From: a virus
Taxonomy: Duplodnaviria; Heunggongvirae; Uroviricota; Caudoviricetes
Length of the DNA stretch: 35,325 nt
Strand: one strand, 5' to 3'
IMG/VR virus record: IMGVR_UViG_2671180296_000012
This document shows, piece after piece, positions 1 to 25,820 of this stretch. The position numbers and the translations under genes were made by a program. Below the pieces are notes generated by a model. The model saw nothing but the letters and a program-made list of their open reading frames with translations, had not been told where the DNA came from and did not search any database. How positions within the stretch are numbered: position 1 is the stretch's first letter; each line of letters opens with the position of its first letter.

Positions 1-1002
1 TTACCCTCTATTGTCAAAAGGGTTCAATTCAACAGCAGCCTCTAAATGACCTGGAGCAAAATGCGCATAACGCATAGTCATTTTTATATCGCTATGCCCC
101 AGTATTTTTTGCAACACAAGAATATTTCCGCCCCGCATCATAAAATGACTGGCAAACGTGTGACGTAGCACATGAGTTAATTGCCCATCAGGAAGCTCGA
201 TCTTCGCTCTCTTAATTGCAGCGTCAAAAGCCTCATAACATGGTGAAAATAGCGCTCCTCGTTTTTTAGGAAGCATAGCCTGCAATTGAGGTGAAATCGG
301 TACAGTGCGGTTCTTCTTTCCTTTAGTTTTAACAAATGTGATTCGACCGGGCAGTACTTGAGATTGCTTTAATCCTTCTGCTTCACTCCACCGAGCACCA
401 GTCGCAAGCCCAATACGGACAACAACCCCCAAATCTTTATTCCGTGACTCATCACACGCAATCAGAAGGCGTTCAATCTCATCTACATACAGAAACGCCA
501 GTTCCTTTTCTTCCTCACGAAACTTGCGAATACCAGTCAGGGGGTTTTCACCAGACCACTCCCCAAGGCGCTTCAGTTCGGCAAAAACAGCATGTAGATA
601 TGACTGCTCGCGATTAACGGTTGCTTCACTAAGTTTTTTCTTCCCCTTGGGATTCCATTCTCCTGATAGCCTTCTTTCCCGATAAGTAGCAAACATATTT
701 TTGTCAAACTGAGAAGCAAATGGATCTCCCAGCCTGGAACAAATCGCCTCAAGTTTGACTTTGCGCTCTGCACCAGAGGACAAGGTTTTACCGTACATCT
801 CAAACCAACGAGCAATCAACTCAGAAAGACGAGGACCAGAACCATCTTGAAACTCGTCTCCAACTCTACTATTCATTAAACGGCGCTCATAAGAGAGCGC
901 CTCACTTTTTGTCGCAAACTGTTTACGAATGCGTTTTCCCGATGCCCCGTAGGGATAACATTCGCAAAGCCATTTACCTGATGGAATCTTACGAACCGAC
1001 AT
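1..1002 (-). CDS. int: tyrosine site-specific integrase (P2 Int family)
   Basis: 333-aa ORF; C-terminal region has the tyrosine recombinase signature (ARWSEA, THVLRHTFASHFMMRGGNILVLQKILGH, MTMRYAHFAP) and resembles P2 Int from memory. Confidence 0.9.
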   Translation of the reverse strand: MSVRKIPSGKWLCECYPYGASGKRIRKQFATKSEALSYERRLMNSRVGDEFQDGSGPRLSELIARWFEMYGKTLSSGAERKVKLEAICSRLGDPFASQFDKNMFATYRERRLSGEWNPKGKKKLSEATVNREQSYLHAVFAELKRLGEWSGENPLTGIRKFREEEKELAFLYVDEIERLLIACDESRNKDLGVVVRIGLATGARWSEAEGLKQSQVLPGRITFVKTKGKKNRTVPISPQLQAMLPKKRGALFSPCYEAFDAAIKRAKIELPDGQLTHVLRHTFASHFMMRGGNILVLQKILGHSDIKMTMRYAHFAPGHLEAAVELNPFDNRG

Positions 1003-1007
1003 TTTAG

Positions 1008-1355
1008 TTACTTATCACATAAATCAAATGCAGCCTTAGTGACATCCCCCAGACTCTTTTTTAACCCTGGGGCGGCATCATTATCTAGCCAAAATGGATT
1101 ATTGTTATCTAACGGTAACGCACCAAATGTTTTACCTTTTATTCGAGCCAAACCTGTAAGTGCATATAACTTATTATCGTCAAAATTCATCACATAAGGA
1201 TTACCATCAAGACACTGTAATTGAACCTCATCAGTATTAAATGGCCATACCCCATTGAAACTCTCACGTTCAATAGTTTTAAAAGGCATTGCGACGGCGG
1301 AAAAAGAAAACATAGATAAAAAAGTAACTAATAGTTGAACCTTTTTTACTTTCAT
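1008..1355 (-). CDS. secreted small protein, YebY/DUF2511-like (accessory)
   Basis: 115 aa with an N-terminal signal-peptide-like hydrophobic segment. Pattern W-x-FN, EV-L-C, GN-YV-N, DNNNP, C-terminal LC resembles the E. coli YebY family as recalled; assignment is from memory only. Confidence 0.55.
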   Translation of the reverse strand: MKVKKVQLLVTFLSMFSFSAVAMPFKTIERESFNGVWPFNTDEVQLQCLDGNPYVMNFDDNKLYALTGLARIKGKTFGALPLDNNNPFWLDNDAAPGLKKSLGDVTKAAFDLCDK

Positions 1356-1384: not shown

Positions 1385-2035
1385 TTACAAATTAAAAAGC
1401 ACCCTAGAAATGACACCGCCTACCAACCCCCCTACGCAGATAAAGAATATTATTTCTTTTGGATAAAGTCGGATTAATTCTGAAGCACGAAGTCGGACTT
1501 CTGGTAAGGTCGAACTCTCTGTGTGGCTTGATGCCGATTGTTGCTCTAACCACGACAATGCAGACTGTAACTGAGAACGAGTAAGATCGTTTAAACGTCC
1601 TGTACCGAAATTGATATGGCAATACCGCAGAAGTTTTTGTCGAAGTCCACAGTCTTCACTGTTACGTAGTAATAAACTTACAAGAGCCTTACAGGCATCA
1701 TGATCTTTACATCGCTCAAGCATTGCATGCAGAAAACTCTCCGCTGTTTTATATTGATTTACTGTCATATCATCAATACCAGCTACACCAATCTCCGCAT
1801 GTACTTTTTGCCAAATAATAAACGCTTCAGTATTGCTAGCTTCTGCAATAGCAGCAACCAAGCTATTTAGCTCCTTACGCTGAGCCTTAAGCAAAGGGCG
1901 ATCGTCATCATCATTATTCGAAGGGATTGCGATATTGACGGTATGAGAACCATCATATCGCTCTATCTGAATATTCTTTTCGTGAAAATCACGCCCAGCA
2001 ACGCGATTGTTTGAACCGTTTGAGTTGACGGCCAT
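1385..2035 (-). CDS. hypothetical protein with C-terminal membrane anchor (accessory)
   Basis: 216-aa ORF ending in a hydrophobic segment (IIFFICVGGLVGGVISRVLF). N-terminus contains NNRVAGRDFHE, matching NNRIAGRDYNE at the C-terminus of the adjacent repressor. Confidence 0.6.
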   Translation of the reverse strand: MAVNSNGSNNRVAGRDFHEKNIQIERYDGSHTVNIAIPSNNDDDDRPLLKAQRKELNSLVAAIAEASNTEAFIIWQKVHAEIGVAGIDDMTVNQYKTAESFLHAMLERCKDHDACKALVSLLLRNSEDCGLRQKLLRYCHINFGTGRLNDLTRSQLQSALSWLEQQSASSHTESSTLPEVRLRASELIRLYPKEIIFFICVGGLVGGVISRVLFNL

Positions 2036-2050
2036 GTCACCTCCCTACTA

Positions 2051-2455
2051 TCACCTACCCTTAGTTTCGTTATAGTCACGACCAGCAATACGGTTATTAC
2101 CACCAGAAATATTTAACTCACGTCCTGATGGCTGAGTTTCCTTTTCACTGATCGCACCTTTTAAAGCCCCAATCACCGCGTTTTTCACATCTAACGAAGC
2201 TGCTCGAAAGCGAGTAATCAACTCCTGCTCATCATCGTTATAAGTTTCAGGTGAGTGAATTCCCAACACAACATACTGAACATCAAGGCCAAAACGAGAC
2301 AGCGCTGCCAAATACGCAGCATCAGGAAAGCTATCTCCTTTCTCATATCTAAGCTGAGTTAGCTTTTTGACTCCACCAATGTCGCTCATGGCAACTTGAC
2401 TAAGTCCCAATCTTTCCCTTTCCTCACGCAACCGCTGACCAATATCATTTTTCAT
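2051..2455 (-). CDS. XRE-family helix-turn-helix repressor (immunity repressor, CI/C-like)
   Basis: 134 aa; N-terminal HTH-like segment (LREERERLGLSQVAMSDIGGVKKLTQLRYEKG); divergent from the early operon, the position of the immunity repressor in P2/186-type phages. Confidence 0.75.
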   Translation of the reverse strand: MKNDIGQRLREERERLGLSQVAMSDIGGVKKLTQLRYEKGDSFPDAAYLAALSRFGLDVQYVVLGIHSPETYNDDEQELITRFRAASLDVKNAVIGALKGAISEKETQPSGRELNISGGNNRIAGRDYNETKGR

Positions 2456-5036: not shown

Positions 5037-7829
5037 ATGACGGCAGAGTACATCAGGGACTGGCAACAACCGCGCCACGCAGTGGGGCGTGAAGGAACGG
5101 GGATCCCCGCTCCTGAATCCGCGCTTTCCTCCTGGCTGGATGCCTACCGGGTAGAGAACGAGCGCCGCCAGGAAATGGCTGATGCGGCGTTCTCCGCCAC
5201 GCCGCAGGGCAACCTGATTAATAAAAGCCTGGACGCACAGGAAAAACAGGACAAAACCATCACACTGGCAGGAGACGCCAGAAAACAGGCACGCGGCGCG
5301 GTGGATGAAGCCATGGCCTCGCTGCGCCTGCTGCCGTCCTATCTGCGCGATCCGCTTATTCGCCACCTCTCCTTCCTGCGCAAAAAACAGGAAGCCGATC
5401 GCCGGAAAGGCAAAAAGAGCTGGCAGGCGGAACGCTATGCACGCGGAACCCTGCGCAAAATATTCGAACGTCTGGATAGCACTGACGGACGCTGGCTGAC
5501 ACCGGGTTATCGCTCCCTTGCCGGACGCGAACGCCTGGACGATTTGCTTTACCTGCCGCAGCTCAACAAACACCAGATACAGACGCTGGCCACCATGACG
5601 GCGGCGATGTTCAGCAGCACCTTCGAAAAACTCTGCGATGGCTTTGGCGCGACCGATGGCGAGCTGACCATGGATGTAACGCTGAAGGCGTATCAGATGC
5701 TGGCCCGCATGGCGTTACACCTGCACGCCATGCCTCCACATTATGACGCACTAACAACAGACAAAGACCGGAGGAACGAACCGGACACGGAGCTGCTGCC
5801 GAGCGCAATCCTTCGCCTGACCTGTGCGGAATGGTGGAAACGCAAACTGTGGCTGTTACGTTGCGAGTGGCGGGAAGAACAACTCCGCGCCGCCTGTCTG
5901 GTTTCCAGAAAGACATCACCCTATCTGAGCCAGGACGCGTTAAGCGAGTTTCGCGCACAGCGCGAGAAAACACGCGATTTCCTGAAAAGTTTCATGCTGG
6001 AAAACGAAGACGGGTTCACGATTGATCTCGAGACAGTGTATTACGCGGGAGTAAGTAACCCGGTTCACCGTAAGGCAGAAATGATGGCCACCATGAAGGG
6101 ACTGGAACTTCTGGCCGAAGCCCGTGGCGACAGAGCGGTGTTTCTGACCGTCACCTGCCCGTCAAAATACCACGCAACAACGGAGAACGGTCATCCGAAC
6201 CCCAAATGGAACGGGGCCACCATGCGCGACTCCAGCGATTACCTGGTTAACACGTTTTTTGCGGCGGTCCGCAAAAAACTGAACCGCGACGGCCTGCGCT
6301 GGTATGGCATCCGCACGGTGGAGCCTCACCATGACGGCACTGTGCACTGGCATATGATGGTCTTTGCACATCCGGACGAGATTGAAACCATCGTGTCCCA
6401 CGTCTGCGATATTGCCATTCAGGAGGACCGCCACGAGCTGGGCGATGACATAACTCCGCGTTTTAAGGCGGAGTATGTCGACGGCTCAAAAGGCACACCA
6501 ACCAGCTACATCGCCACCTACATCGGAAAGAACCTGGACAGCCGCGCCGTGGATGGCATCGACCCGAAAACGGGCAAGCCACGCGTTGACCACGAAACCG
6601 GAAAATCAATGGCCGAGAGCGTGGAGCGCGCCATCGGCTGGGCGCGCCTTCACCGGGTCCGCCAGTTCCAGTTCTTTGGCATTCCCTCCCGTCAGGTGTG
6701 GCGTGAACTCCGCCGCCTTGCCAGCCAGATGGCACGCAACCCGGAGGGCCCGCAACGGCTGAAGGATGACGCAATGGATGCGGTTCTTGCTGCCGCTGAT
6801 GCCGGGTGTTTTGCCACCTACATTGAAAAACAGGGTGGCGTACTTGTTCCGCGCAAGGACTACCTGATTCGCACAGCCTACGACCTCGCAGATGAGCTGA
6901 ACGATTACGGCGAACAGAGTGTACAGATTTACGGGATCTGGTCGCCACTCATCGGGGAATCCTCCCGTGTGTGCACGCACCCGGATAACTGGAAGCTGGT
7001 AAGACGTAAACCGGAAGCGGAAGACAGCACCCACGAAAATGGTTTTGACCTTCAGGGCGGCCCTGCCGCCCCTTGGACTCGTGGCAATAACTGTCCCCGT
7101 GTACAGGAAACGAACAACAACGGGACAGAACAGCCGGAAGAACGGCCAGCACCGTGGCCGCAGCTTCCTGACGGCGTTGACGTGAATGAATGGATGCGCT
7201 CACTGAAACGGCACGAACGTCGGGCGCTGATGCGTTCGCTTCGCGACAAACAGGCAAAAAACAGCAGTGATGAAATGCAGAACTGGTCACAGAGCCGCAA
7301 GCAGCCGCGGCCTTTGCCTGATAACCACGAATTACTCGCTAAAGAATGGCGGGAGTCTGTCGAATCTCTCGGCCTGCATATCGGTGAACAACAGATGCTG
7401 CACCTGTTACGGGGCGGCAGTCTGTACGTTGACGGCAGCATCATTGCACCGCAGGGATTTGAAATTGTACGCAAACCGGATACCCGCCCGGACAGCCGAA
7501 TCACGCAGCTCTGGCAGCGCCTGAGCCGTAATCACGGCGTAAGCAGCACGGAGATCCGTCATAACCCGGTCGCCAGCTATCTGGAACAGCTGGGGGCATC
7601 AGACCCCGAAGCCGCCGCACGCCTGGCATCCACACTTCAGCAGGACCAGAACACCATGAAAACACCCGTTACCGTGCTTTCTGACATGCTGCGCGCCATC
7701 CGTAACGCAGAGCACGAACAGAGAATCAGTGAAACCACTGAACGCGCCCGCCGCAAAGCAGACCTGCTGCGGGGTGGACTGACCAGTGGAAACAAAAACA
7801 GACAGAAACGGGATTCACAAATCCCGTAA
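5037..7829 (+). CDS. A: replication initiation protein gpA (HUH rolling-circle endonuclease)
   Basis: 930 aa; HUH-type motif GTVHWHMMVFAHP and paired-tyrosine motif YIATYIGKN, as in the P2 gpA family. Confidence 0.9.
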   Translation: MTAEYIRDWQQPRHAVGREGTGIPAPESALSSWLDAYRVENERRQEMADAAFSATPQGNLINKSLDAQEKQDKTITLAGDARKQARGAVDEAMASLRLLPSYLRDPLIRHLSFLRKKQEADRRKGKKSWQAERYARGTLRKIFERLDSTDGRWLTPGYRSLAGRERLDDLLYLPQLNKHQIQTLATMTAAMFSSTFEKLCDGFGATDGELTMDVTLKAYQMLARMALHLHAMPPHYDALTTDKDRRNEPDTELLPSAILRLTCAEWWKRKLWLLRCEWREEQLRAACLVSRKTSPYLSQDALSEFRAQREKTRDFLKSFMLENEDGFTIDLETVYYAGVSNPVHRKAEMMATMKGLELLAEARGDRAVFLTVTCPSKYHATTENGHPNPKWNGATMRDSSDYLVNTFFAAVRKKLNRDGLRWYGIRTVEPHHDGTVHWHMMVFAHPDEIETIVSHVCDIAIQEDRHELGDDITPRFKAEYVDGSKGTPTSYIATYIGKNLDSRAVDGIDPKTGKPRVDHETGKSMAESVERAIGWARLHRVRQFQFFGIPSRQVWRELRRLASQMARNPEGPQRLKDDAMDAVLAAADAGCFATYIEKQGGVLVPRKDYLIRTAYDLADELNDYGEQSVQIYGIWSPLIGESSRVCTHPDNWKLVRRKPEAEDSTHENGFDLQGGPAAPWTRGNNCPRVQETNNNGTEQPEERPAPWPQLPDGVDVNEWMRSLKRHERRALMRSLRDKQAKNSSDEMQNWSQSRKQPRPLPDNHELLAKEWRESVESLGLHIGEQQMLHLLRGGSLYVDGSIIAPQGFEIVRKPDTRPDSRITQLWQRLSRNHGVSSTEIRHNPVASYLEQLGASDPEAAARLASTLQQDQNTMKTPVTVLSDMLRAIRNAEHEQRISETTERARRKADLLRGGLTSGNKNRQKRDSQIP

Positions 7830-7899
7830 ATGAGCAAAAAACGCGCCATAAAACATGAAGTGCGCACAAAACAGGCAAAAGCGGGATTTCAGAATCCCG
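7808..7899. promoter_or_regulatory. two near-identical palindromes (ACGGGATT-N4-AATCCCGT at 7808-7827; CGGGATT-N4-AATCCCG at 7882-7899) upstream of parM; candidate parC-like centromere/operator
   Basis: Read directly; centres about 73 bp apart; the first overlaps the 3' end of gene A; located where parC lies relative to parM in R1-type loci. Confidence 0.35.
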
Positions 7900-7934
7900 T
7901 AAACGATTAATTAATCAACATAAGGAAAAGCGAC

Positions 7935-8894
7935 ATGAAAATTTGTATCGACGACGGCTCCACCAACATCAAGCTGGCATGGACTGAGAACGGCGAACGC
8001 CGCAACGCCATCAGCCCGAACAGCTTCAAGTCGGAATGGTCTGCGCCGTTCGGTGGCACGCAGCCCGCGAACTACATGCTTGATGGCGTGCGCTATGGCT
8101 TTGATCCGGTCAGCGATCGCTTTGTCCAGACGACCGACACGCAGTACCAGTACAGCGATGTGAATGTAGTTGCCATTCATCACGCACTGGTCAAATCAGG
8201 CATCACACCACAGGAAGTGGATGTGGTTGTCACCCTACCACTGAGCGAGTATTTCGACACAAACGCACAGCCGGACATGGCCAACATCAACCGCAAAAAA
8301 GCGAACGTCATGCGCCCGGCGGAGTACCAGAACGGCGAAGCATTCACTATCCGTAACGTACGGGTTATGCCTGAATCCATTCCGGCTGGCTTTAAAGCAC
8401 TGGCTGACATGAGTCCGTTTGAATCCCTGCTGATTGTGGATTTAGGCGGAACCACGCTGGATGTGGCAAAGGTTCAGGGACAACTGGCAGGTATCAGCCA
8501 GGTGTTTTGCGATCCACACGTAGGCGTTTCCCTGATGGCCGATGCCGTACTGTCGGTGATGGCCACTAACGGTATGCGTACCAGTCACCACATCGCCAAT
8601 ACCATTATCGAACATCGCCATGATGAAGCCTGGCTGCGCCAGCACATCCACAATGACGCGCATTACGACAGCCTGATGGCGGTTATTCGTGAAAAGGAAG
8701 AAACACTGAAACAACGCGTGATCCGCGCGCTGGCGGGTTTTTCGGGTTACGGGCGGGTGATGGTTGTCGGTGGAGGGGCGGAGATTGTGGCACCCGCTAT
8801 CCGCGAAGCCTGCGGAGTTAATGCGACTTTCATCGCGGACGGGGTGCCACAGTTTGCTCTGGTTAATGGGCTGTACGCAATGGACAAGGAGTAA
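7935..8894 (+). CDS. parM: actin-like segregation ATPase ParM/StbA homolog
   Basis: 319 aa; strong resemblance to plasmid R1 ParM as recalled (MKICIDDGSTNIKLAW, ISPNSFK, YSDVNVVAIHHAL, VMPESIPAG, LLIVDLGGTTLDV, VMVVGGGAE). Confidence 0.85.
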   Translation: MKICIDDGSTNIKLAWTENGERRNAISPNSFKSEWSAPFGGTQPANYMLDGVRYGFDPVSDRFVQTTDTQYQYSDVNVVAIHHALVKSGITPQEVDVVVTLPLSEYFDTNAQPDMANINRKKANVMRPAEYQNGEAFTIRNVRVMPESIPAGFKALADMSPFESLLIVDLGGTTLDVAKVQGQLAGISQVFCDPHVGVSLMADAVLSVMATNGMRTSHHIANTIIEHRHDEAWLRQHIHNDAHYDSLMAVIREKEETLKQRVIRALAGFSGYGRVMVVGGGAEIVAPAIREACGVNATFIADGVPQFALVNGLYAMDKE

Positions 8895-8898
8895 ACCA

Positions 8899-9210
8899 AT
8901 GACGACACCAACCAGACGGATAAGTTTCTATCTGAAGCCCGCCGCCGTCAAGAACGAAGGCGAAGCATGTGCCTGGCTGGACAGCCTTACGCCAGAAGCC
9001 CGCAAAAGCGGCCAACGCGTGGCTTTTTTGGCCGGGCTGGCACTTCTGAAAATGAATCCAGCAGAGGCTTACCGACTGGCTGCATGGGCTGACGATGAGG
9101 CGTTATCGGTGACACAAACCAGGACAGAACACCCCGTGTCACAGCCAGTACCAACCGCACAGATAACCAGTCAGATGGCAGGGAATATCCGGGCATTATT
9201 TCCTGAATGA
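8899..9210 (+). CDS. parR: ParR-like ribbon-helix-helix centromere-binding protein
   Basis: 103 aa from the ATG at 8899 (AAGGAG upstream), directly after parM as in R1; ISFYLKP, FLAGLALL and NIRALFPE resemble R1 ParR from memory. Confidence 0.6.
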   Translation: MTTPTRRISFYLKPAAVKNEGEACAWLDSLTPEARKSGQRVAFLAGLALLKMNPAEAYRLAAWADDEALSVTQTRTEHPVSQPVPTAQITSQMAGNIRALFPE

Positions 9211-9270
9211 CGAATTTGACGGCTTTTAATTTTATCGGGGTGCACTGTCGCCCCGCACGAGGAAAACACG

Positions 9271-9795
9271 ATGAAAAAATACGAATACATGCTAATGAAA
9301 GAAGCACTGCGGGCTGGTCTGGCTCCCTGTCCTGTATCCGTAGAGGCTGTTGTTGGGAACACGATTTTCCGAACGCTGCGAAATCGCGTATCCGTGAAGA
9401 TGATTCATCAACCACCCAAATCTACCAGCATGATCTATCTGCCGCTGCCCGAGGCTATCAAACTTATGCGTTCGCTGAAATTTGCGATTTGGATGCAGAC
9501 ACAACTCAACAAAGCGGTGCAAAACACCTTCGTTAAGAAACTGATGCCGGAGCTTGCTGCCAGATGTGCAAAATGTACCAGACCCGCACTTCAATTTGAT
9601 CTGTCATTGATTCAACAAGCTACGGAGGCAGAACTATACCGCCTGTCACCTCTCCATGATGCTCACACGGAAGCCTCAGAAATGTTCCGGCTCATGTTTC
9701 AATTTAATTTTGCCGTTCGACGCACACACGTTCAGGTCAATCGCATGATGCAGGCGCAGGAAGAGCTGGCGCAACACAAAGGAGGCAACCAGTGA
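9271..9795 (+). CDS. hypothetical protein (accessory, A-Q hotspot)
   Basis: 174-aa ORF with GAGG upstream; stop overlaps the start of the next gene (GTGA). Confidence 0.55.
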   Translation: MKKYEYMLMKEALRAGLAPCPVSVEAVVGNTIFRTLRNRVSVKMIHQPPKSTSMIYLPLPEAIKLMRSLKFAIWMQTQLNKAVQNTFVKKLMPELAARCAKCTRPALQFDLSLIQQATEAELYRLSPLHDAHTEASEMFRLMFQFNFAVRRTHVQVNRMMQAQEELAQHKGGNQ

Positions 9796-10382
9796 GCAAG
9801 ATTGACTATCAGGCATTACGCGAACGTTATTCACCTGTGCCAGTACCGAAATGCCATATTTGCGGCGAGGAAATGTCAATTCAGCGAATATCTGGAGCAC
9901 AGGTTGTTTATGCCTGCTCCGGTTATGGTGATGATGGAGATTTCAAAATTGGTCGAACTCTTGCCGACGAACATTATGAAAAATCACGCGTAACAGTGTT
10001 GGATGTCGGGGATCCTGAAGTATTGGCGCTACTTGATTGGCTGGAAACTAAAGACAACCGAATCGCTGAACTGGAAAAAATCGCCACTGACTATGCACTT
10101 AAATTCCAGAAAGCACAGGACGCATTAAAGTACGCCGCTTTGCTGCATAGCCGAACGGCGCAACAAACCAATAATTTTGCAGTATTGCTTCCGGACATAA
10201 GCGAATATTTCATTAATAACGTATTTCAGCCCTTGCGATACGAGCGGGATGTTGAAAGAGCCATCATAAAGGCTGGCGGAAAAGCATTGTGGCAGGAGAA
10301 ACACGAGGACAGAACGCATCAGTCCTGCGATGTAAATTGTGGATGGTTTAGCCCACTGACGACAGATAAAAATAACACCTGA
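9792..10382 (+). CDS. hypothetical protein with N-terminal Cys cluster (accessory, A-Q hotspot)
   Basis: 196-aa ORF, GTG start overlapping upstream stop; CHICGEEM...YAC near N-terminus and SCDVNCGW near C-terminus. Confidence 0.55.
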   Translation: MSKIDYQALRERYSPVPVPKCHICGEEMSIQRISGAQVVYACSGYGDDGDFKIGRTLADEHYEKSRVTVLDVGDPEVLALLDWLETKDNRIAELEKIATDYALKFQKAQDALKYAALLHSRTAQQTNNFAVLLPDISEYFINNVFQPLRYERDVERAIIKAGGKALWQEKHEDRTHQSCDVNCGWFSPLTTDKNNT

Positions 10383-10394
10383 TCCCCCTCAAAC

Positions 10395-10520
10395 CAGGGC
10401 GATAATCGCGCATCGCCCTGCTGCACAATAGTGCACAAATTTGCACAATTTTTTTGAACGAATTTTTGCCCTTCCGGCCCGCGTGGCGACTGGATCCGTC
10501 AAGGATCCGTGCGTGCACAA
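10395..10520. repeat. palindrome CAGGGCGAT-N8-ATCGCCCTG followed by TGCACAA heptamers (three at exact 10-bp spacing at 10422/10432/10442, a fourth at 10514) and a tandem GGATCCGT pair
   Basis: Read directly from sequence; non-coding region between the accessory genes and Q, where P2-like phages carry cos. Confidence 0.4.
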
Positions 10521-10822
10521 AAAAACACACTTTTTCTGCGCGCAGGTGACGGGGGAACAGCCCGCGTTTCAGGGGGTAAATAGCGTTCCCTTAACGATGT
10601 CGCAGCGACACGACAGAATGGCCGTATTTCTCACGCTGAGCGTGAAAAATACGTGAGGGATTCTGGTTTGATGGGGTGAAAGGTAAGGCCGTCAAAATCG
10701 CACTGAGGCGGCGAGAACATGCAGTCAGCGCAGTGGGATTGCGTAAGAGTCTGACCGTCGATGATGGCAATAAGCAGGAAAGCGTCGTGAAATTATCTGA
10801 CTGATACAGGAGCTGGAGAGTC

Positions 10823-10845
10823 GGGGCATAAATTTTTTATGCCCC
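10823..10845. terminator. hairpin GGGGCATAAA-ttt-TTTATGCCCC downstream of Q and of the plus-strand accessory genes (bidirectional terminator candidate)
   Basis: Perfect 10-bp stem with A/T-rich flanks, read from sequence. Confidence 0.5.
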
Positions 10846-10872
10846 GGCGAAGCAGCAGACAAGCGAAGCGCG

Positions 10873-11919
10873 TCAGGATGTGGGCTGGGTATCTAACAGT
10901 GCGTAAGGGTTAAAGCGGATCACCTCTTCGCCAAGCCAGTCATTGATGTGCTTCATGGCCTCCATGACGGGCATCAGCTCGTTAATTGCGTAAACCCGCG
11001 CGGCCTTCTCCACATCACCAAACGCACTTTTTTCGCCCGGCATCGCCCCCATCAGTTGCGGCGGAACGCGGTGCGCAGCCAGCACATCATCACGGGATGC
11101 CGCCTTAACATTCATGAACTCATCTTTTGCGGTGATCTGCTGGAACGGCAAAATTTGCACCCCCTCTTTGCCCCCGTTGGGCGCATGAATGAGCACGTTT
11201 TTAAACGCACCACCACCACGTGCCCCCTGTAGCGTTTCTTTCAGGGAGTCCATGCTTTCGCGGTTTACCTGCGCTGCACCGATGTAGATGATGCACCCGG
11301 CGTGGGATCCGTTGTCGTAGTACAGTTTTCTGAACATGTCCGCCGAATGAGAAAGGCTGGCCGAGAGTAATGCGCCAAGATATTCCGGCATGCCGTAGAT
11401 TTCCTGGTTAATATCCGGATTCATCAGGTGGCACACTTTGCCAGGACGAAACTGAAACGCGTCCTTGCCATCCTGCACATACCACCATGATTCAAGATCG
11501 CTTCCGCGTCGCATGTATTTCGCCAGTGCGTGCCGTAATTTAAGCGGTTCGCCGAGCATATTGCTCCGAAGCTCAAGGAATGCGTTACCGAACACAAACC
11601 AGTCCAGCGCCAGCGCCGAGAAATCCTGCCGGGAAAGCAGCGGGTGCGGGATGTAGCAACCGAGTAATACATTGCGCTTAAAGTAAAGCGCAGACTGATG
11701 CCAGGACGTTTGCCGGGCTGCTCTTGCCAGACCGTACCAGTCCACCGGGGTTTCATACCACCGCCCGTTATCAGCACAGTACATATTGTCCAGCAGGTCA
11801 TGCCCGGTCAGGCGATAAGGACCATCAAATGTGAATGCACTGAGCGATGATTCTTTCCTGAGCGCATCAGCGAGATCAATGCGTGAACTCATGCGCACTT
11901 TTTTATTTTTTCTGCTCAT
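10873..11919 (-). CDS. Q: portal protein gpQ
   Basis: 348 aa; leftward, adjacent to the terminase large subunit as in P2. Confidence 0.9.
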   Translation of the reverse strand: MSRKNKKVRMSSRIDLADALRKESSLSAFTFDGPYRLTGHDLLDNMYCADNGRWYETPVDWYGLARAARQTSWHQSALYFKRNVLLGCYIPHPLLSRQDFSALALDWFVFGNAFLELRSNMLGEPLKLRHALAKYMRRGSDLESWWYVQDGKDAFQFRPGKVCHLMNPDINQEIYGMPEYLGALLSASLSHSADMFRKLYYDNGSHAGCIIYIGAAQVNRESMDSLKETLQGARGGGAFKNVLIHAPNGGKEGVQILPFQQITAKDEFMNVKAASRDDVLAAHRVPPQLMGAMPGEKSAFGDVEKAARVYAINELMPVMEAMKHINDWLGEEVIRFNPYALLDTQPTS

Positions 11920-24375: not shown

Positions 24376-24544
24376 ACTCACCATCAATATATAAATCCCC
24401 CTGCTGTGTGTCAGCAGGGCATTCTTTCCATATTAATGATGGATGGAATCTTCCTTCAGGATTAATTTCCGTTATCTCTTCTACTTTATTTTCTTCAATT
24501 CTTGCCCACATATGAACCTCACCAGTAAATATAAACTGCGCCAT
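24341..24544 (-). CDS. putative alternative tail fibre assembly chaperone (start uncertain; track ORF extends to 24769)
   Basis: Minus-strand ORF inside the invertible segment; ATG at 24544 (MAQFIF...) overlaps the stop of the alternative fibre cassette; upstream in-frame starts would overlap that cassette by 170-250 nt. Confidence 0.35.
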   Translation of the reverse strand: MAQFIFTGEVHMWARIEENKVEEITEINPEGRFHPSLIWKECPADTQQGDLYIDGEFIVQSPAVQAR

Positions 24545-25152
24545 CTGCTCCGGCACCCGACTGACCCGTTGATGAATTAGGACATAATCCAGCACCGCCA
24601 CCTCCAGGCCCAACTGCTGATACCGCTTTTCCGTTAGCTGTATCTCTGAATGAACCTGCTCCTCCGGGGCCACCACCAGAACCACCATTACCAGCTCCCG
24701 ATGCGGCAGAAGCAATGGAACCTGGAGAACCTGGCCCAAGCGATGTATTAATTGTTCCCCCGACACCAACTGCGCCTAACCCTCCGGAAGGCTGGCCTCC
24801 GCTATAGCCTCCGGAAGCTGACATGTAAGTCCCGAAACTGCTCGAGCCACCATTTTTACCGTTTACAGAAATACCAGACACAGGCGCACCACCGGCACCA
24901 ACCGTAATCGAAACACTGTTTATACCAGTTAAATCTACCAGCCCCTCAGCAACTCCGCCCCCACCACCTCCTCCGCCACATGTAACGGCTGAAGCGGTTG
25001 TTGAACCTATCCCTCCTGACGCACCGCCACCAATAACTTTGACGTAACATTTTCTTCCATTGCGCAACTCTTCAGGAACAGTCCAGCTTGTTACTCCAGC
25101 CGTTGTGAAGGCAACCAGATTTCTGAACCCAAATGAACCTTCTCTCAAACCA
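24519..25152 (-). CDS. silent alternative tail-fibre C-terminal cassette (glycine-rich), no start codon of its own
   Basis: Minus-strand ORF reading into the right crossover site. Manual inversion between the two sites joins it in frame to gpH, giving ...DYLGLREGSFGFRNLVAFTTAGVTSWTVPEE..., which matches the translated minus-strand ORF. Confidence 0.65.
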
Positions 25153-25165
25153 ACGTTTAAGAAAA
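25140..25165. promoter_or_regulatory. right crossover site for DNA invertase (TTCTCTCAAACC-AA-CGTTTAAGAAAA)
   Basis: Resembles hix/gix/cix sites as recalled; inverted relative to the site at 23274-23299; lies just upstream of the invertase gene. Confidence 0.6.
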
Positions 25166-25220
25166 TGCAGAGATTACGGCTAACTGGCATCATCCCCGGT
25201 TTTTATTCAGGGGATCCATC

Positions 25221-25820
25221 ATGCTTATTGGCTATGTCCGCGTATCAACAAATGACCAGAATACAGAATTGCAGCGTAACGCGCTGGAGTGCGCAGGATG
25301 TGAACTGATTTTTGAAGATAAAATCAGCGGAACGAAATCAGCCAGACCGGGATTGAAAAAACTGCTCAGAACGCTATCAGAAGGAGATACGCTGGTTGTC
25401 TGGAAGCTGGACAGACTGGGCAGAAGTATGAAACACCTGATCACGCTTATTGAGGAATTGCGGGAAAAAGGTGTTAATTTCCGTAGTCTGACGGACAGCA
25501 TTGACACATCAACACCCATGGGGCGTTTCTTTTTTCACGTCATGGGAGCTTTAGCCGAAATGGAACGTGAATTAATTGTAGAGCGTACACTGGCCGGGCT
25601 GGCAGCAGCACGCGCACAAGGACGCATTGGCGGACGTCGCCCGAAGTTGACAAAAGAACAACACGAGCAAATAGCGAGGCTGATTAAAAACGGTCATGAC
25701 AGGAAACAACTGGCGATCATTTACGACATCGGCATATCGACGATTTATCGTTATCACCCTGTAGGCGATATACAGGCTGAAGAAACAACCAGGCAGATTC
25801 AGGAAAATGAAAACCGCTAA
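25221..25820 (+). CDS. serine DNA invertase (Hin/Gin/Cin/Pin family)
   Basis: 199 aa; N-terminal catalytic region GYVRVSTNDQ with conserved serine, and a C-terminal HTH (GISTIYRY). Confidence 0.9.
   Translation: MLIGYVRVSTNDQNTELQRNALECAGCELIFEDKISGTKSARPGLKKLLRTLSEGDTLVVWKLDRLGRSMKHLITLIEELREKGVNFRSLTDSIDTSTPMGRFFFHVMGALAEMERELIVERTLAGLAAARAQGRIGGRRPKLTKEQHEQIARLIKNGHDRKQLAIIYDIGISTIYRYHPVGDIQAEETTRQIQENENR

Follow-up and report, generated by a model that had tools for sequence, protein, structure and literature searches.

An Ead/Ea22-like gene and an orphan accessory gene in the gpA-gpQ hotspot of a P88-like E. coli prophage

The gpA-gpQ hotspot and the setting of the gene pair

In the Ea22 protein of phage lambda, a variable N-terminal region is followed by a coiled coil that forms tetramers and a C-terminal domain that forms dimers (PMC10834534; PMC8614690). 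Deletion of the ea22 gene in lambda and in Stx phages favours lytic growth, i.e. Ea22 is pro-lysogenic, and this is the sole phenotype examined within the family (PMC7093339; PMC10834534). The interval between the genes gpA and gpQ, in turn, was defined as a variable hotspot of P2-like phages by Rousset et al. 2022 (PMC9122126). The hotspot houses numerous validated defence systems (PMC9122126; PMC13586616), and it also harbours a partition system in about a quarter of the P2-like phages, as well as a toxin (PMC9122126). The arrangement of the two genes analysed below is already present, with no sign of a defence test, among the gpA-gpQ locus arrangements of supplementary file 6 of Rousset et al. 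2022 (PMC9122126).

The window, i.e. the whole stretch of 35,325 nucleotides of the IMG/VR record IMGVR_UViG_2671180296_000012, represents a P88-like E. coli prophage (Xuanwuvirus, Peduoviridae, P2-related). It contains two co-directional genes, termed ORF1 and ORF2, for which the sizes and the GTGA overlap reported in the first-pass annotation were confirmed from the list of open reading frames and the raw sequence (Table 1). The gene order at this locus is gpA, parM, parR/stbB, ORF1 and ORF2, followed by about 490 bp of conserved non-coding DNA and the oppositely oriented portal gene, a gpQ homologue. The pair is accordingly located in the cos-adjacent slot between gpA and gpQ, as the first-pass annotation had stated, which nevertheless left unmentioned the ParM/ParR module directly upstream. 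This module was recognized by profile matches to PF06406 (1.4e-81), PF21523 (1e-68) and PF10784 (4.1e-24). The immediate upstream neighbours of the pair are therefore genes of a type II plasmid partition system of the ParMR (StbA/StbB) type, encoded on the same strand and probably on the same transcript, whereas ORF1 and ORF2 themselves lie outside the partition module.

The regions flanking ORF1 and ORF2 share 94-97% identity with the phages P88, P88_4B11, Chuche and others, with a different sequence in the middle. ParMR is kept across the P88-like phages and the genes downstream of it vary; in sister prophages, a YafO toxin gene occupies the same slot. The GC contents of ORF1 (0.49) and ORF2 (0.45) are low when compared with about 0.55 in the neighbouring genes, which fits horizontally acquired cargo and agrees with the first-pass view of the two genes as cargo. 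Moreover, the slot draws on a gene pool that is shared with the 'ea' regions of lambdoid and P1-like phages, since Ea22-like genes and small ClpX-type zinc-finger genes were found in both settings. The ClpX-type zinc-finger genes carry the annotation 'carboxylate--amine ligase' in P88 and D6.

Table 1. Features of the locus, with positions given for the window
Feature	Position	Strand	Description	Basis
gpA (replication gene)	5037-7829			
ParM	7935-8894	+	partition module, upstream of ORF1	
ParR/StbB	8899-9210	+	partition module, directly upstream of ORF1	
ORF1	9271-9795	+	ATG start, 174 aa	ORF list and raw sequence
Gene junction	9779-9795	+	AAGGAGG at 9779-9785; GTG at 9792-9794; TGA stop of ORF1 at 9793-9795; GTGA overlap at 9792-9795	
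ORF2	9792-10382	+	GTG start, 196 aa	ORF list and raw sequence
ORF2, N module (about residues 1-74)	9792-10013	+	MSKIDYQALRE start motif; C21-x2-C24...C42...H61	
ORF2, central long helix (residues 75-123)	10014-10160	+	RIAELEKIATDYALKFQKAQDALKYA	AF2 model
ORF2, small alpha/beta C-terminal domain (residues 130-167)	10179-10292	+	core EYFINxVFQPLRYERDVERAI	
ORF2, C-terminal tail (residues 171-196)	10302-10379	+	pLDDT 31-36, very low confidence	
Terminator-like hairpin with T-run	10431-10456	+	about 50 nt past the ORF2 stop	consensus scan only
Portal gene (gpQ homologue)	10873-11919	-	right border of the variable slot	portal annotation in near-identical prophages

ORF2 is preceded by a strong Shine-Dalgarno sequence, AAGGAGG, which falls within the last part of ORF1 and is separated from the GTG start codon by six nucleotides; this layout would allow translational coupling of ORF2 to ORF1. 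The junction sequence including the 4-nt overlap (CACAAAGGAGGCAACCAGTGAGCAAGATTGACTATCAGG) is common to Stx phage PA2, in which the upstream gene is unrelated, and a 4-nt overlap upstream of Ea22-type genes is also found in ES18, again with an unrelated upstream gene, and in D6. The overlap is a general feature of the junctions that precede Ea22-type genes, i.e. a mosaic joint, and since it is shared with unrelated upstream genes it is not a signature of the ORF1-ORF2 pair. A simple consensus scan of positions 7700-11000, which can provide weak negative evidence only, revealed no sigma-70-like promoter and in particular none before ORF1. The terminator-like site downstream of ORF2 is the probable end of the rightward transcription unit. 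With no promoter found and a terminator-like hairpin located after ORF2, the pair probably forms the tail of the gpA/parMR transcript.

ORF2, a mosaic member of the Ead/Ea22 family

The deduced ORF2 protein matched the Ead/Ea22-like profile PF13935 with an E value of 1.7e-32 and a score of 113.3 bits (cut-off 27), and the alignment of its residues 2-138 covered positions 1-133 of the 139 positions of the profile. Additionally, ORF2 matched phrog_368, near-identical copies are named 'ead/Ea22-like family protein' in RefSeq, and a homologue search yielded 1283 relatives. The same Pfam profile gave no match in ORF1. The first-pass annotation had recognised neither protein as a member of a known family; this stands for the orphan ORF1 and is corrected for ORF2. 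The start of ORF2, which encodes an acidic protein (pI 5.4), is supported by an ATG codon at the same position in a sister prophage. ORF2 is a genuine gene and a new mosaic member of a known and poorly understood family.

Alignments of the relatives indicated that ORF2 is a mosaic of four parts, the boundaries of which are confirmed by natural domain swaps. The N module shows short beta strands in the AF2 model, and sister loci carry either of two other N modules in its place. All 18 proteins with the ORF2-type N module share the residues C21, C24, C42 and H61, and this invariance suggests a plausible zinc-ribbon-like site of the Cys3-His type that would bind zinc. The family start motif MS(E/K)I(D/N)xQALRE is present in ORF2, lambda Ea22, ES18 gp41 and all partners of ORF1. 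The central helix is the best-predicted stretch of ORF2, with block-mean pLDDT values of about 64-81, and is presumed from the model to be a coiled-coil oligomerisation region; the coiled coil is retained in all Ea22-type partners of ORF1. Within the C-terminal domain, the YERD motif (Y150-E151-R152-D153) is invariant in 23 of 23 sequences. The tail that follows this domain is absent from the variants of 174 and 179 aa.

Two cysteine motifs had been pointed out in the first-pass annotation, and both are present in ORF2. The N-terminal one belongs to the invariant set of residues described above, whereas the cysteines of the CDVNCGW motif in the tail are not conserved: C179 is retained in 11 of the 19 sequences compared, and C183 in four of 18. 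A metal site at CDVNCGW was rejected because of this lack of conservation and the poor prediction of the tail. A search with the C-terminal 73 residues of ORF2 alone returned only four near-identical fragments. The AF2 model of ORF2 is of low confidence (mean pLDDT 61) and displays a beta-rich N-terminal part, the long helix and the small alpha/beta domain. Foldseek, one of the checks named in the first-pass annotation, detected no match of this model in the PDB at an E value of 0.001 or below, the top matches (Cas12f and others) being noise, and the ORF2 sequence retrieved nothing from the PDB at E values up to 1.

A comparison of ORF2 with the Ea22 proteins of lambda and the Stx phages revealed several common features. 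ORF2 scores above the PF13935 threshold and begins with the same start motif, its gene shares the GTG start codon with lambda ea22, and, according to the low-confidence model, the protein follows the same three-part plan, in which a central coiled coil lies between a variable N-terminal region and a separate C-terminal domain. Like Ea22 genes, ORF2 belongs to a run of small early genes and shares 4 nt with the gene that precedes it. However, the pairwise similarity between ORF2 and lambda Ea22 is not significant (BLASTP E value of 11 or worse), and the two proteins share only the first ten or so residues in addition to the general architecture. The N module of ORF2 is of the zinc-ribbon-like 'Ead' type and not of the lambda type, and its C-terminal domain bears no relationship to that of lambda, the solved structure of which (8DSX) was retrieved at 1.2e-51 by lambda Ea22 and not by ORF2. 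Moreover, ORF2 is located behind gpA-parM-parR in a P2-like prophage and not in the exo-xis region of a lambdoid phage with its early pL transcription.

A closer relative is gp41 of phage ES18, annotated as 'similar to phage P22 eaD', which shares 55% identity with ORF2 over residues 1-132. Like ORF2, gp41 combines an N module of the CxxC...C...H type with a coiled coil; its C-terminal part differs from that of ORF2. Judged by sequence, ORF2 is closest to the Ead type of the Ead/Ea22 family.

ORF1 and its association with Ea22-type genes

ORF1 encodes a basic protein (pI 9.9) with very few relatives, which comprised eight clusters among 5.8 billion proteins. An exhaustive profile search among 1.84 billion representatives returned only three, all of the same family. 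Searches of ORF1 against Pfam, PHROGs, NCBIfam and PADLOC assigned it to no family, the best match being phrog_4116 with an E value of 0.34; seven members of the ORF1 family gave only noise against Pfam, and a sequence search of the PDB gave no match. The AF2 model, which was based on an alignment of seven sequences, is mostly helical and unusable (pLDDT 51). The ORF1 profile detected no relative among all open reading frames of the 'ea' regions of lambda, ES18, PA2 and D6 or in the rest of the window, and ORF1 was on these grounds rejected as a diverged gene of the EaE, orf73 or gp42 type.

A full, uninterrupted reading frame of similar length is retained in ORF1 homologues down to 45% identity. 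Deep comparisons according to Nei-Gojobori yielded dN/dS values of 0.18-0.34 at dS values of 0.54-0.75. By this pattern of substitution, ORF1 qualifies as a genuine gene under purifying selection. All copies of ORF1 that were found occupy the ParR-to-portal slot of P88-like elements, and ORF1 is classified as an uncharacterised orphan accessory gene.

The joint occurrence of the two genes was counted among 5426 complete E. coli genomes, which are not phylogenetically independent. ORF1 was detected in 29 of these genomes and an ORF2-type gene in 134, and ORF1 is absent for about 88% of the ORF2-type genes. A direct junction between parR and an Ea22 gene was present in 194 of the 5426 genomes. 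ORF2 follows parR directly, without ORF1, in phage P88_4B11 and in O26-type strains. The pair nonetheless recurs, as at least 80% of the two-gene query was covered in 21 complete E. coli genomes. The co-occurrence expected from the first-pass annotation was thus borne out as to recurrence, whereas the unequal numbers of genomes with ORF1 and with ORF2-type genes speak against a fixed association.

The genes downstream of ORF1 were tabulated for 33 ORF1 loci, comprising the window, E. coli genomes, IMG/VR contigs and metagenome contigs, and seven arrangements were distinguished. ORF1 is followed by the 196-aa ORF2 type at six loci and by an ORF2-type gene truncated to 174 aa at four. Seven loci encode an Ea22 protein of 179 aa whose N module is a different one, four an Ea22 protein of 179 aa with a lambda-type N module, and three a 99-aa version of the latter, which lacks the C-terminal domain. 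At one locus, a 161-aa gene is inserted between ORF1 and the Ea22 gene. The other arrangements consist of a 72-bp Ea22 remnant followed by an unknown protein and the YafO toxin (four loci), and of an unrelated DUF7446 protein, the gene of which likewise overlaps ORF1 by 4 nt (four loci). At L037, one of the DUF7446 loci, an insertion of the IS3 type interrupts ORF1.

An Ea22-type gene with the same coiled coil accordingly follows ORF1 in 25 of the 33 loci, including loci in which ORF1 shows 69-78% identity, and an intact Ea22 gene is missing downstream of ORF1 in eight, where a remnant or unrelated genes are present instead. This adjacency could reflect a functional linkage; since the ORF1 loci are not independent samples, it is also explained by shared ancestry. 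Neither gene needs the other and the linkage is non-obligate. An obligate two-component system was rejected on the basis of these co-occurrence data.

Functional interpretation of the two genes

On balance, it is probable, with moderate confidence, that the pair represents shuffled accessory genes of the lambdoid 'ea' type, with ORF2 being an oligomeric, non-enzymatic adaptor and ORF1 an independent and optional gene. According to this interpretation, ORF1 and ORF2 would be 'moron' genes that are shuffled independently of each other and lie where the rightward gpA-parM-parR string ends. ORF2 is assembled from exchangeable modules, namely the zinc-ribbon-like N module, the coiled coil, the YERD domain and the dispensable tail, and its central coiled coil probably oligomerises the protein. 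By analogy with Ea22 of lambda and the Stx phages, the resulting adaptor may bind a host or phage factor and may thereby tune the lysis-lysogeny balance, the phage life cycle, or host survival and physiology; it would probably not act as a nuclease-type exclusion effector. Given the lack of significant similarity between ORF2 and lambda Ea22 and their unrelated C-terminal domains, the transfer of the pro-lysogenic phenotype to ORF2 is weak. The small, basic and presumably helical ORF1 protein would be at most an optional partner of the coiled-coil and C-terminal part of Ea22-type proteins, and its 4-nt overlap would allow coupling to whichever gene follows. On the other side of the balance stand the P2-like, defence-rich hotspot, which differs from the exo-xis region of lambda, the adjacency of ORF1 to Ea22-type genes in 25 of the 33 loci, and the low confidence of both structure models.

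It is rather unlikely that one or both proteins serve in counter-defence, i.e. are made early after infection or induction and neutralise a defence of the host or of a rival prophage. Ea22-type genes are located in early, recombination-linked accessory regions, and such regions were proposed as reservoirs of anti-immunity proteins in a 2026 preprint, in which the anti-OLD protein Oad2 was described as related to P22 EaE and as fused to EaD/Ea22 in some phages (10.64898/2026.07.10.737580). The small size of the two proteins, their non-enzymatic nature and the fast swapping of modules are features reminiscent of inhibitors, and the genes point in the direction of the early replication genes, no promoter of their own having been detected. 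However, the link to Oad2 consists of a fusion in other phages and not of a similarity to ORF1 or ORF2, and the ORF1 profile matched neither the EaE-like genes of ES18 nor the other 'ea'-region genes that were fetched. Homology to known anti-defence proteins was likewise not found in the family and defence libraries searched, namely Pfam, PHROGs, NCBIfam and PADLOC.

The first-pass annotation had proposed the pair as an uncharacterised two-gene system for anti-phage defence or superinfection exclusion, which the prophage would express in the manner of old and tin in P2, and this reading is considered unlikely. Its one supporting argument is the location, as the pair lies near cos, flanked by the replication gene and the portal gene, in the slot that holds old, tin and the other defence cassettes of the P2 hotspot, the home of validated defence systems (PMC9122126; PMC13586616); the cargo-like low GC content, the recurrence in at least 21 complete genomes and the persistence of ORF1 beside Ea22-type genes even at 69-78% identity can be placed next to it. 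The hotspot also holds non-defence cargo such as partition systems and a toxin (PMC9122126), however, and unlike the old/tin-type cassettes the pair resembles no defence protein model in sequence or domain content. In particular, no PADLOC-DB v2 family was matched by ORF1 or ORF2 at E values up to 1, and none of the libraries searched revealed a catalytic or sensor domain, the first-pass annotation having likewise seen no catalytic motifs. ORF2 belongs to a known family whose studied members act on the life cycle of their own phage, and the simple scan detected no promoter belonging to the pair itself. The location given in the original proposal stood and the pair recurs, whereas a fixed unit was not supported: ORF1 and ORF2 are not consistently linked, with the great majority of ORF2-type genes lacking ORF1 and eight of the 33 ORF1 loci lacking an intact Ea22 gene. 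Since each gene is often found without the other, nothing marks a new two-gene anti-phage system.

A closer relationship between the two proteins, in which ORF1 would be a dedicated partner of the coiled-coil/YERD part of Ea22-type proteins, is regarded as improbable. The basic ORF1 protein would then bind the acidic oligomer, and the two would form a new module of inter-phage conflict acting in defence or counter-defence. The exchangeable N modules would represent swappable sensors or targeting heads, and the presence of ORF1 beside Ea22 genes with three different N modules would reflect function and not ancestry.

A toxin-antitoxin-like addiction or stabilisation module that works with ParMR in the maintenance of the element is very improbable and was rejected on the co-occurrence data: it would accord with the position directly downstream of parM-parR, the 4-nt overlap of genes for a basic and an acidic protein and the YafO gene in the same slot of sister prophages, but each gene is intact without the other in many genomes, the fact that neither needs the other argues against such a pair, no toxin or antitoxin family was matched in Pfam, NCBIfam or PADLOC, and type II toxin-antitoxin proteins are typically small, ORF1 and ORF2 both being larger. 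The probability left over falls to something else.

The main value of the interpretation as shuffled 'ea'-type accessory genes is that it averts a wrong call, since genes carried in a defence hotspot need not serve in defence. With ORF2, the large and poorly understood Ead/Ea22 family gains a further mosaic member, and the locus indicates that lambdoid 'ea'-type accessory genes circulate in P2-like phages too, where they are linked through conserved start-codon junctions. Mutagenesis could start from two invariant features, the Cys3-His site of the Ead-type N module and the YERD motif. As a small orphan gene on which purifying selection acts, ORF1 is perhaps worth a phenotype screen, and if the improbable linkage hypothesis is true, it would be the first functional partner for an Ea22-type protein.

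Variation between ORF1 and the portal gene in sister prophages

The slot occupied by ORF1 and the Ea22-like gene was found to differ among the sister prophages represented by the 33 tabulated ORF1 loci. In locus L017, a 161-aa gene (L017 2794-3279), the product of which begins with MTGNAAILDMCCGSRMFWFDKNDD and has no Pfam match, has been inserted precisely where ORF1 would otherwise meet the Ea22-like gene and shares a 4-nt overlap with each of them, thereby demonstrating a cassette-style insertion at start/stop junctions. Four further loci (L007, L008, L016 and L030) retain only a 72-bp remnant of the Ea22 gene, which is replaced by the genes of a 197-aa protein without a family match and of a YafO-family toxin (L007 3022-4181), with no annotated antitoxin evident. 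ORF1 itself is broken after residue 61 in one IMG/VR prophage (L037) by an insertion of approximately 1.25 kb (L037 2249-3501) that codes for IS3-family-like OrfA and OrfB transposase proteins, as assigned by eye.

The ORF2-portal non-coding DNA (at 10421-10656) is kept in all sister loci, each of which also contains a spurious ORF starting with MHNFFERLFALPARVAAGS within this stretch. The region includes three GTGCACAAA-type repeats and a palindrome, and probably represents the cos/packaging region.

Repeats and partition genes at and beyond the end of gpA

Two 39-nt direct repeats, each with an internal CGGGATT...AATCCCG hairpin, span the end of gpA, with parM located immediately downstream. 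They could represent a parC-like centromere or a ParR operator, or else transcription attenuators, and their minus-strand score is terminator-like. The same prophage combines a tyrosine integrase (Int_N and Phage_integrase domains) with a complete ParM/ParR partition module (7935-9210). This oddity occurs in about a quarter of P2-like phages according to Rousset et al. (PMC9122126), who suggest that such phages may be maintained as plasmids.

Candidate cargo and a candidate tail-fibre switch

The DUF2511 gene and the gene of a 216-aa protein are flanked by the integrase gene and the HTH repressor-like gene, and may constitute additional cargo in another, minor variable site. The DNA invertase gene adjoins a glycine-rich gene on the opposite strand, and the two genes may form a tail-fibre inversion switch that provides host-range variation.

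Additional features located in the window
Feature	Position	Strand	Remark
Tyrosine integrase	1-1002		
DUF2511 protein	1008-1355		
216-aa protein	1385-2035		no family match
HTH repressor-like gene	2051-2455		
39-nt direct repeat, copy 1	7795-7833		copies 79% alike
39-nt direct repeat, copy 2	7868-7906		copies 79% alike
Three repeats	10421-10538		ORF2-portal non-coding stretch
15-nt palindrome	10623-10653		near-perfect; ORF2-portal non-coding stretch
Glycine-rich gene	24519-25193	-	
Serine-recombinase DNA invertase	25221-25820	+	Resolvase and HTH_7 domains
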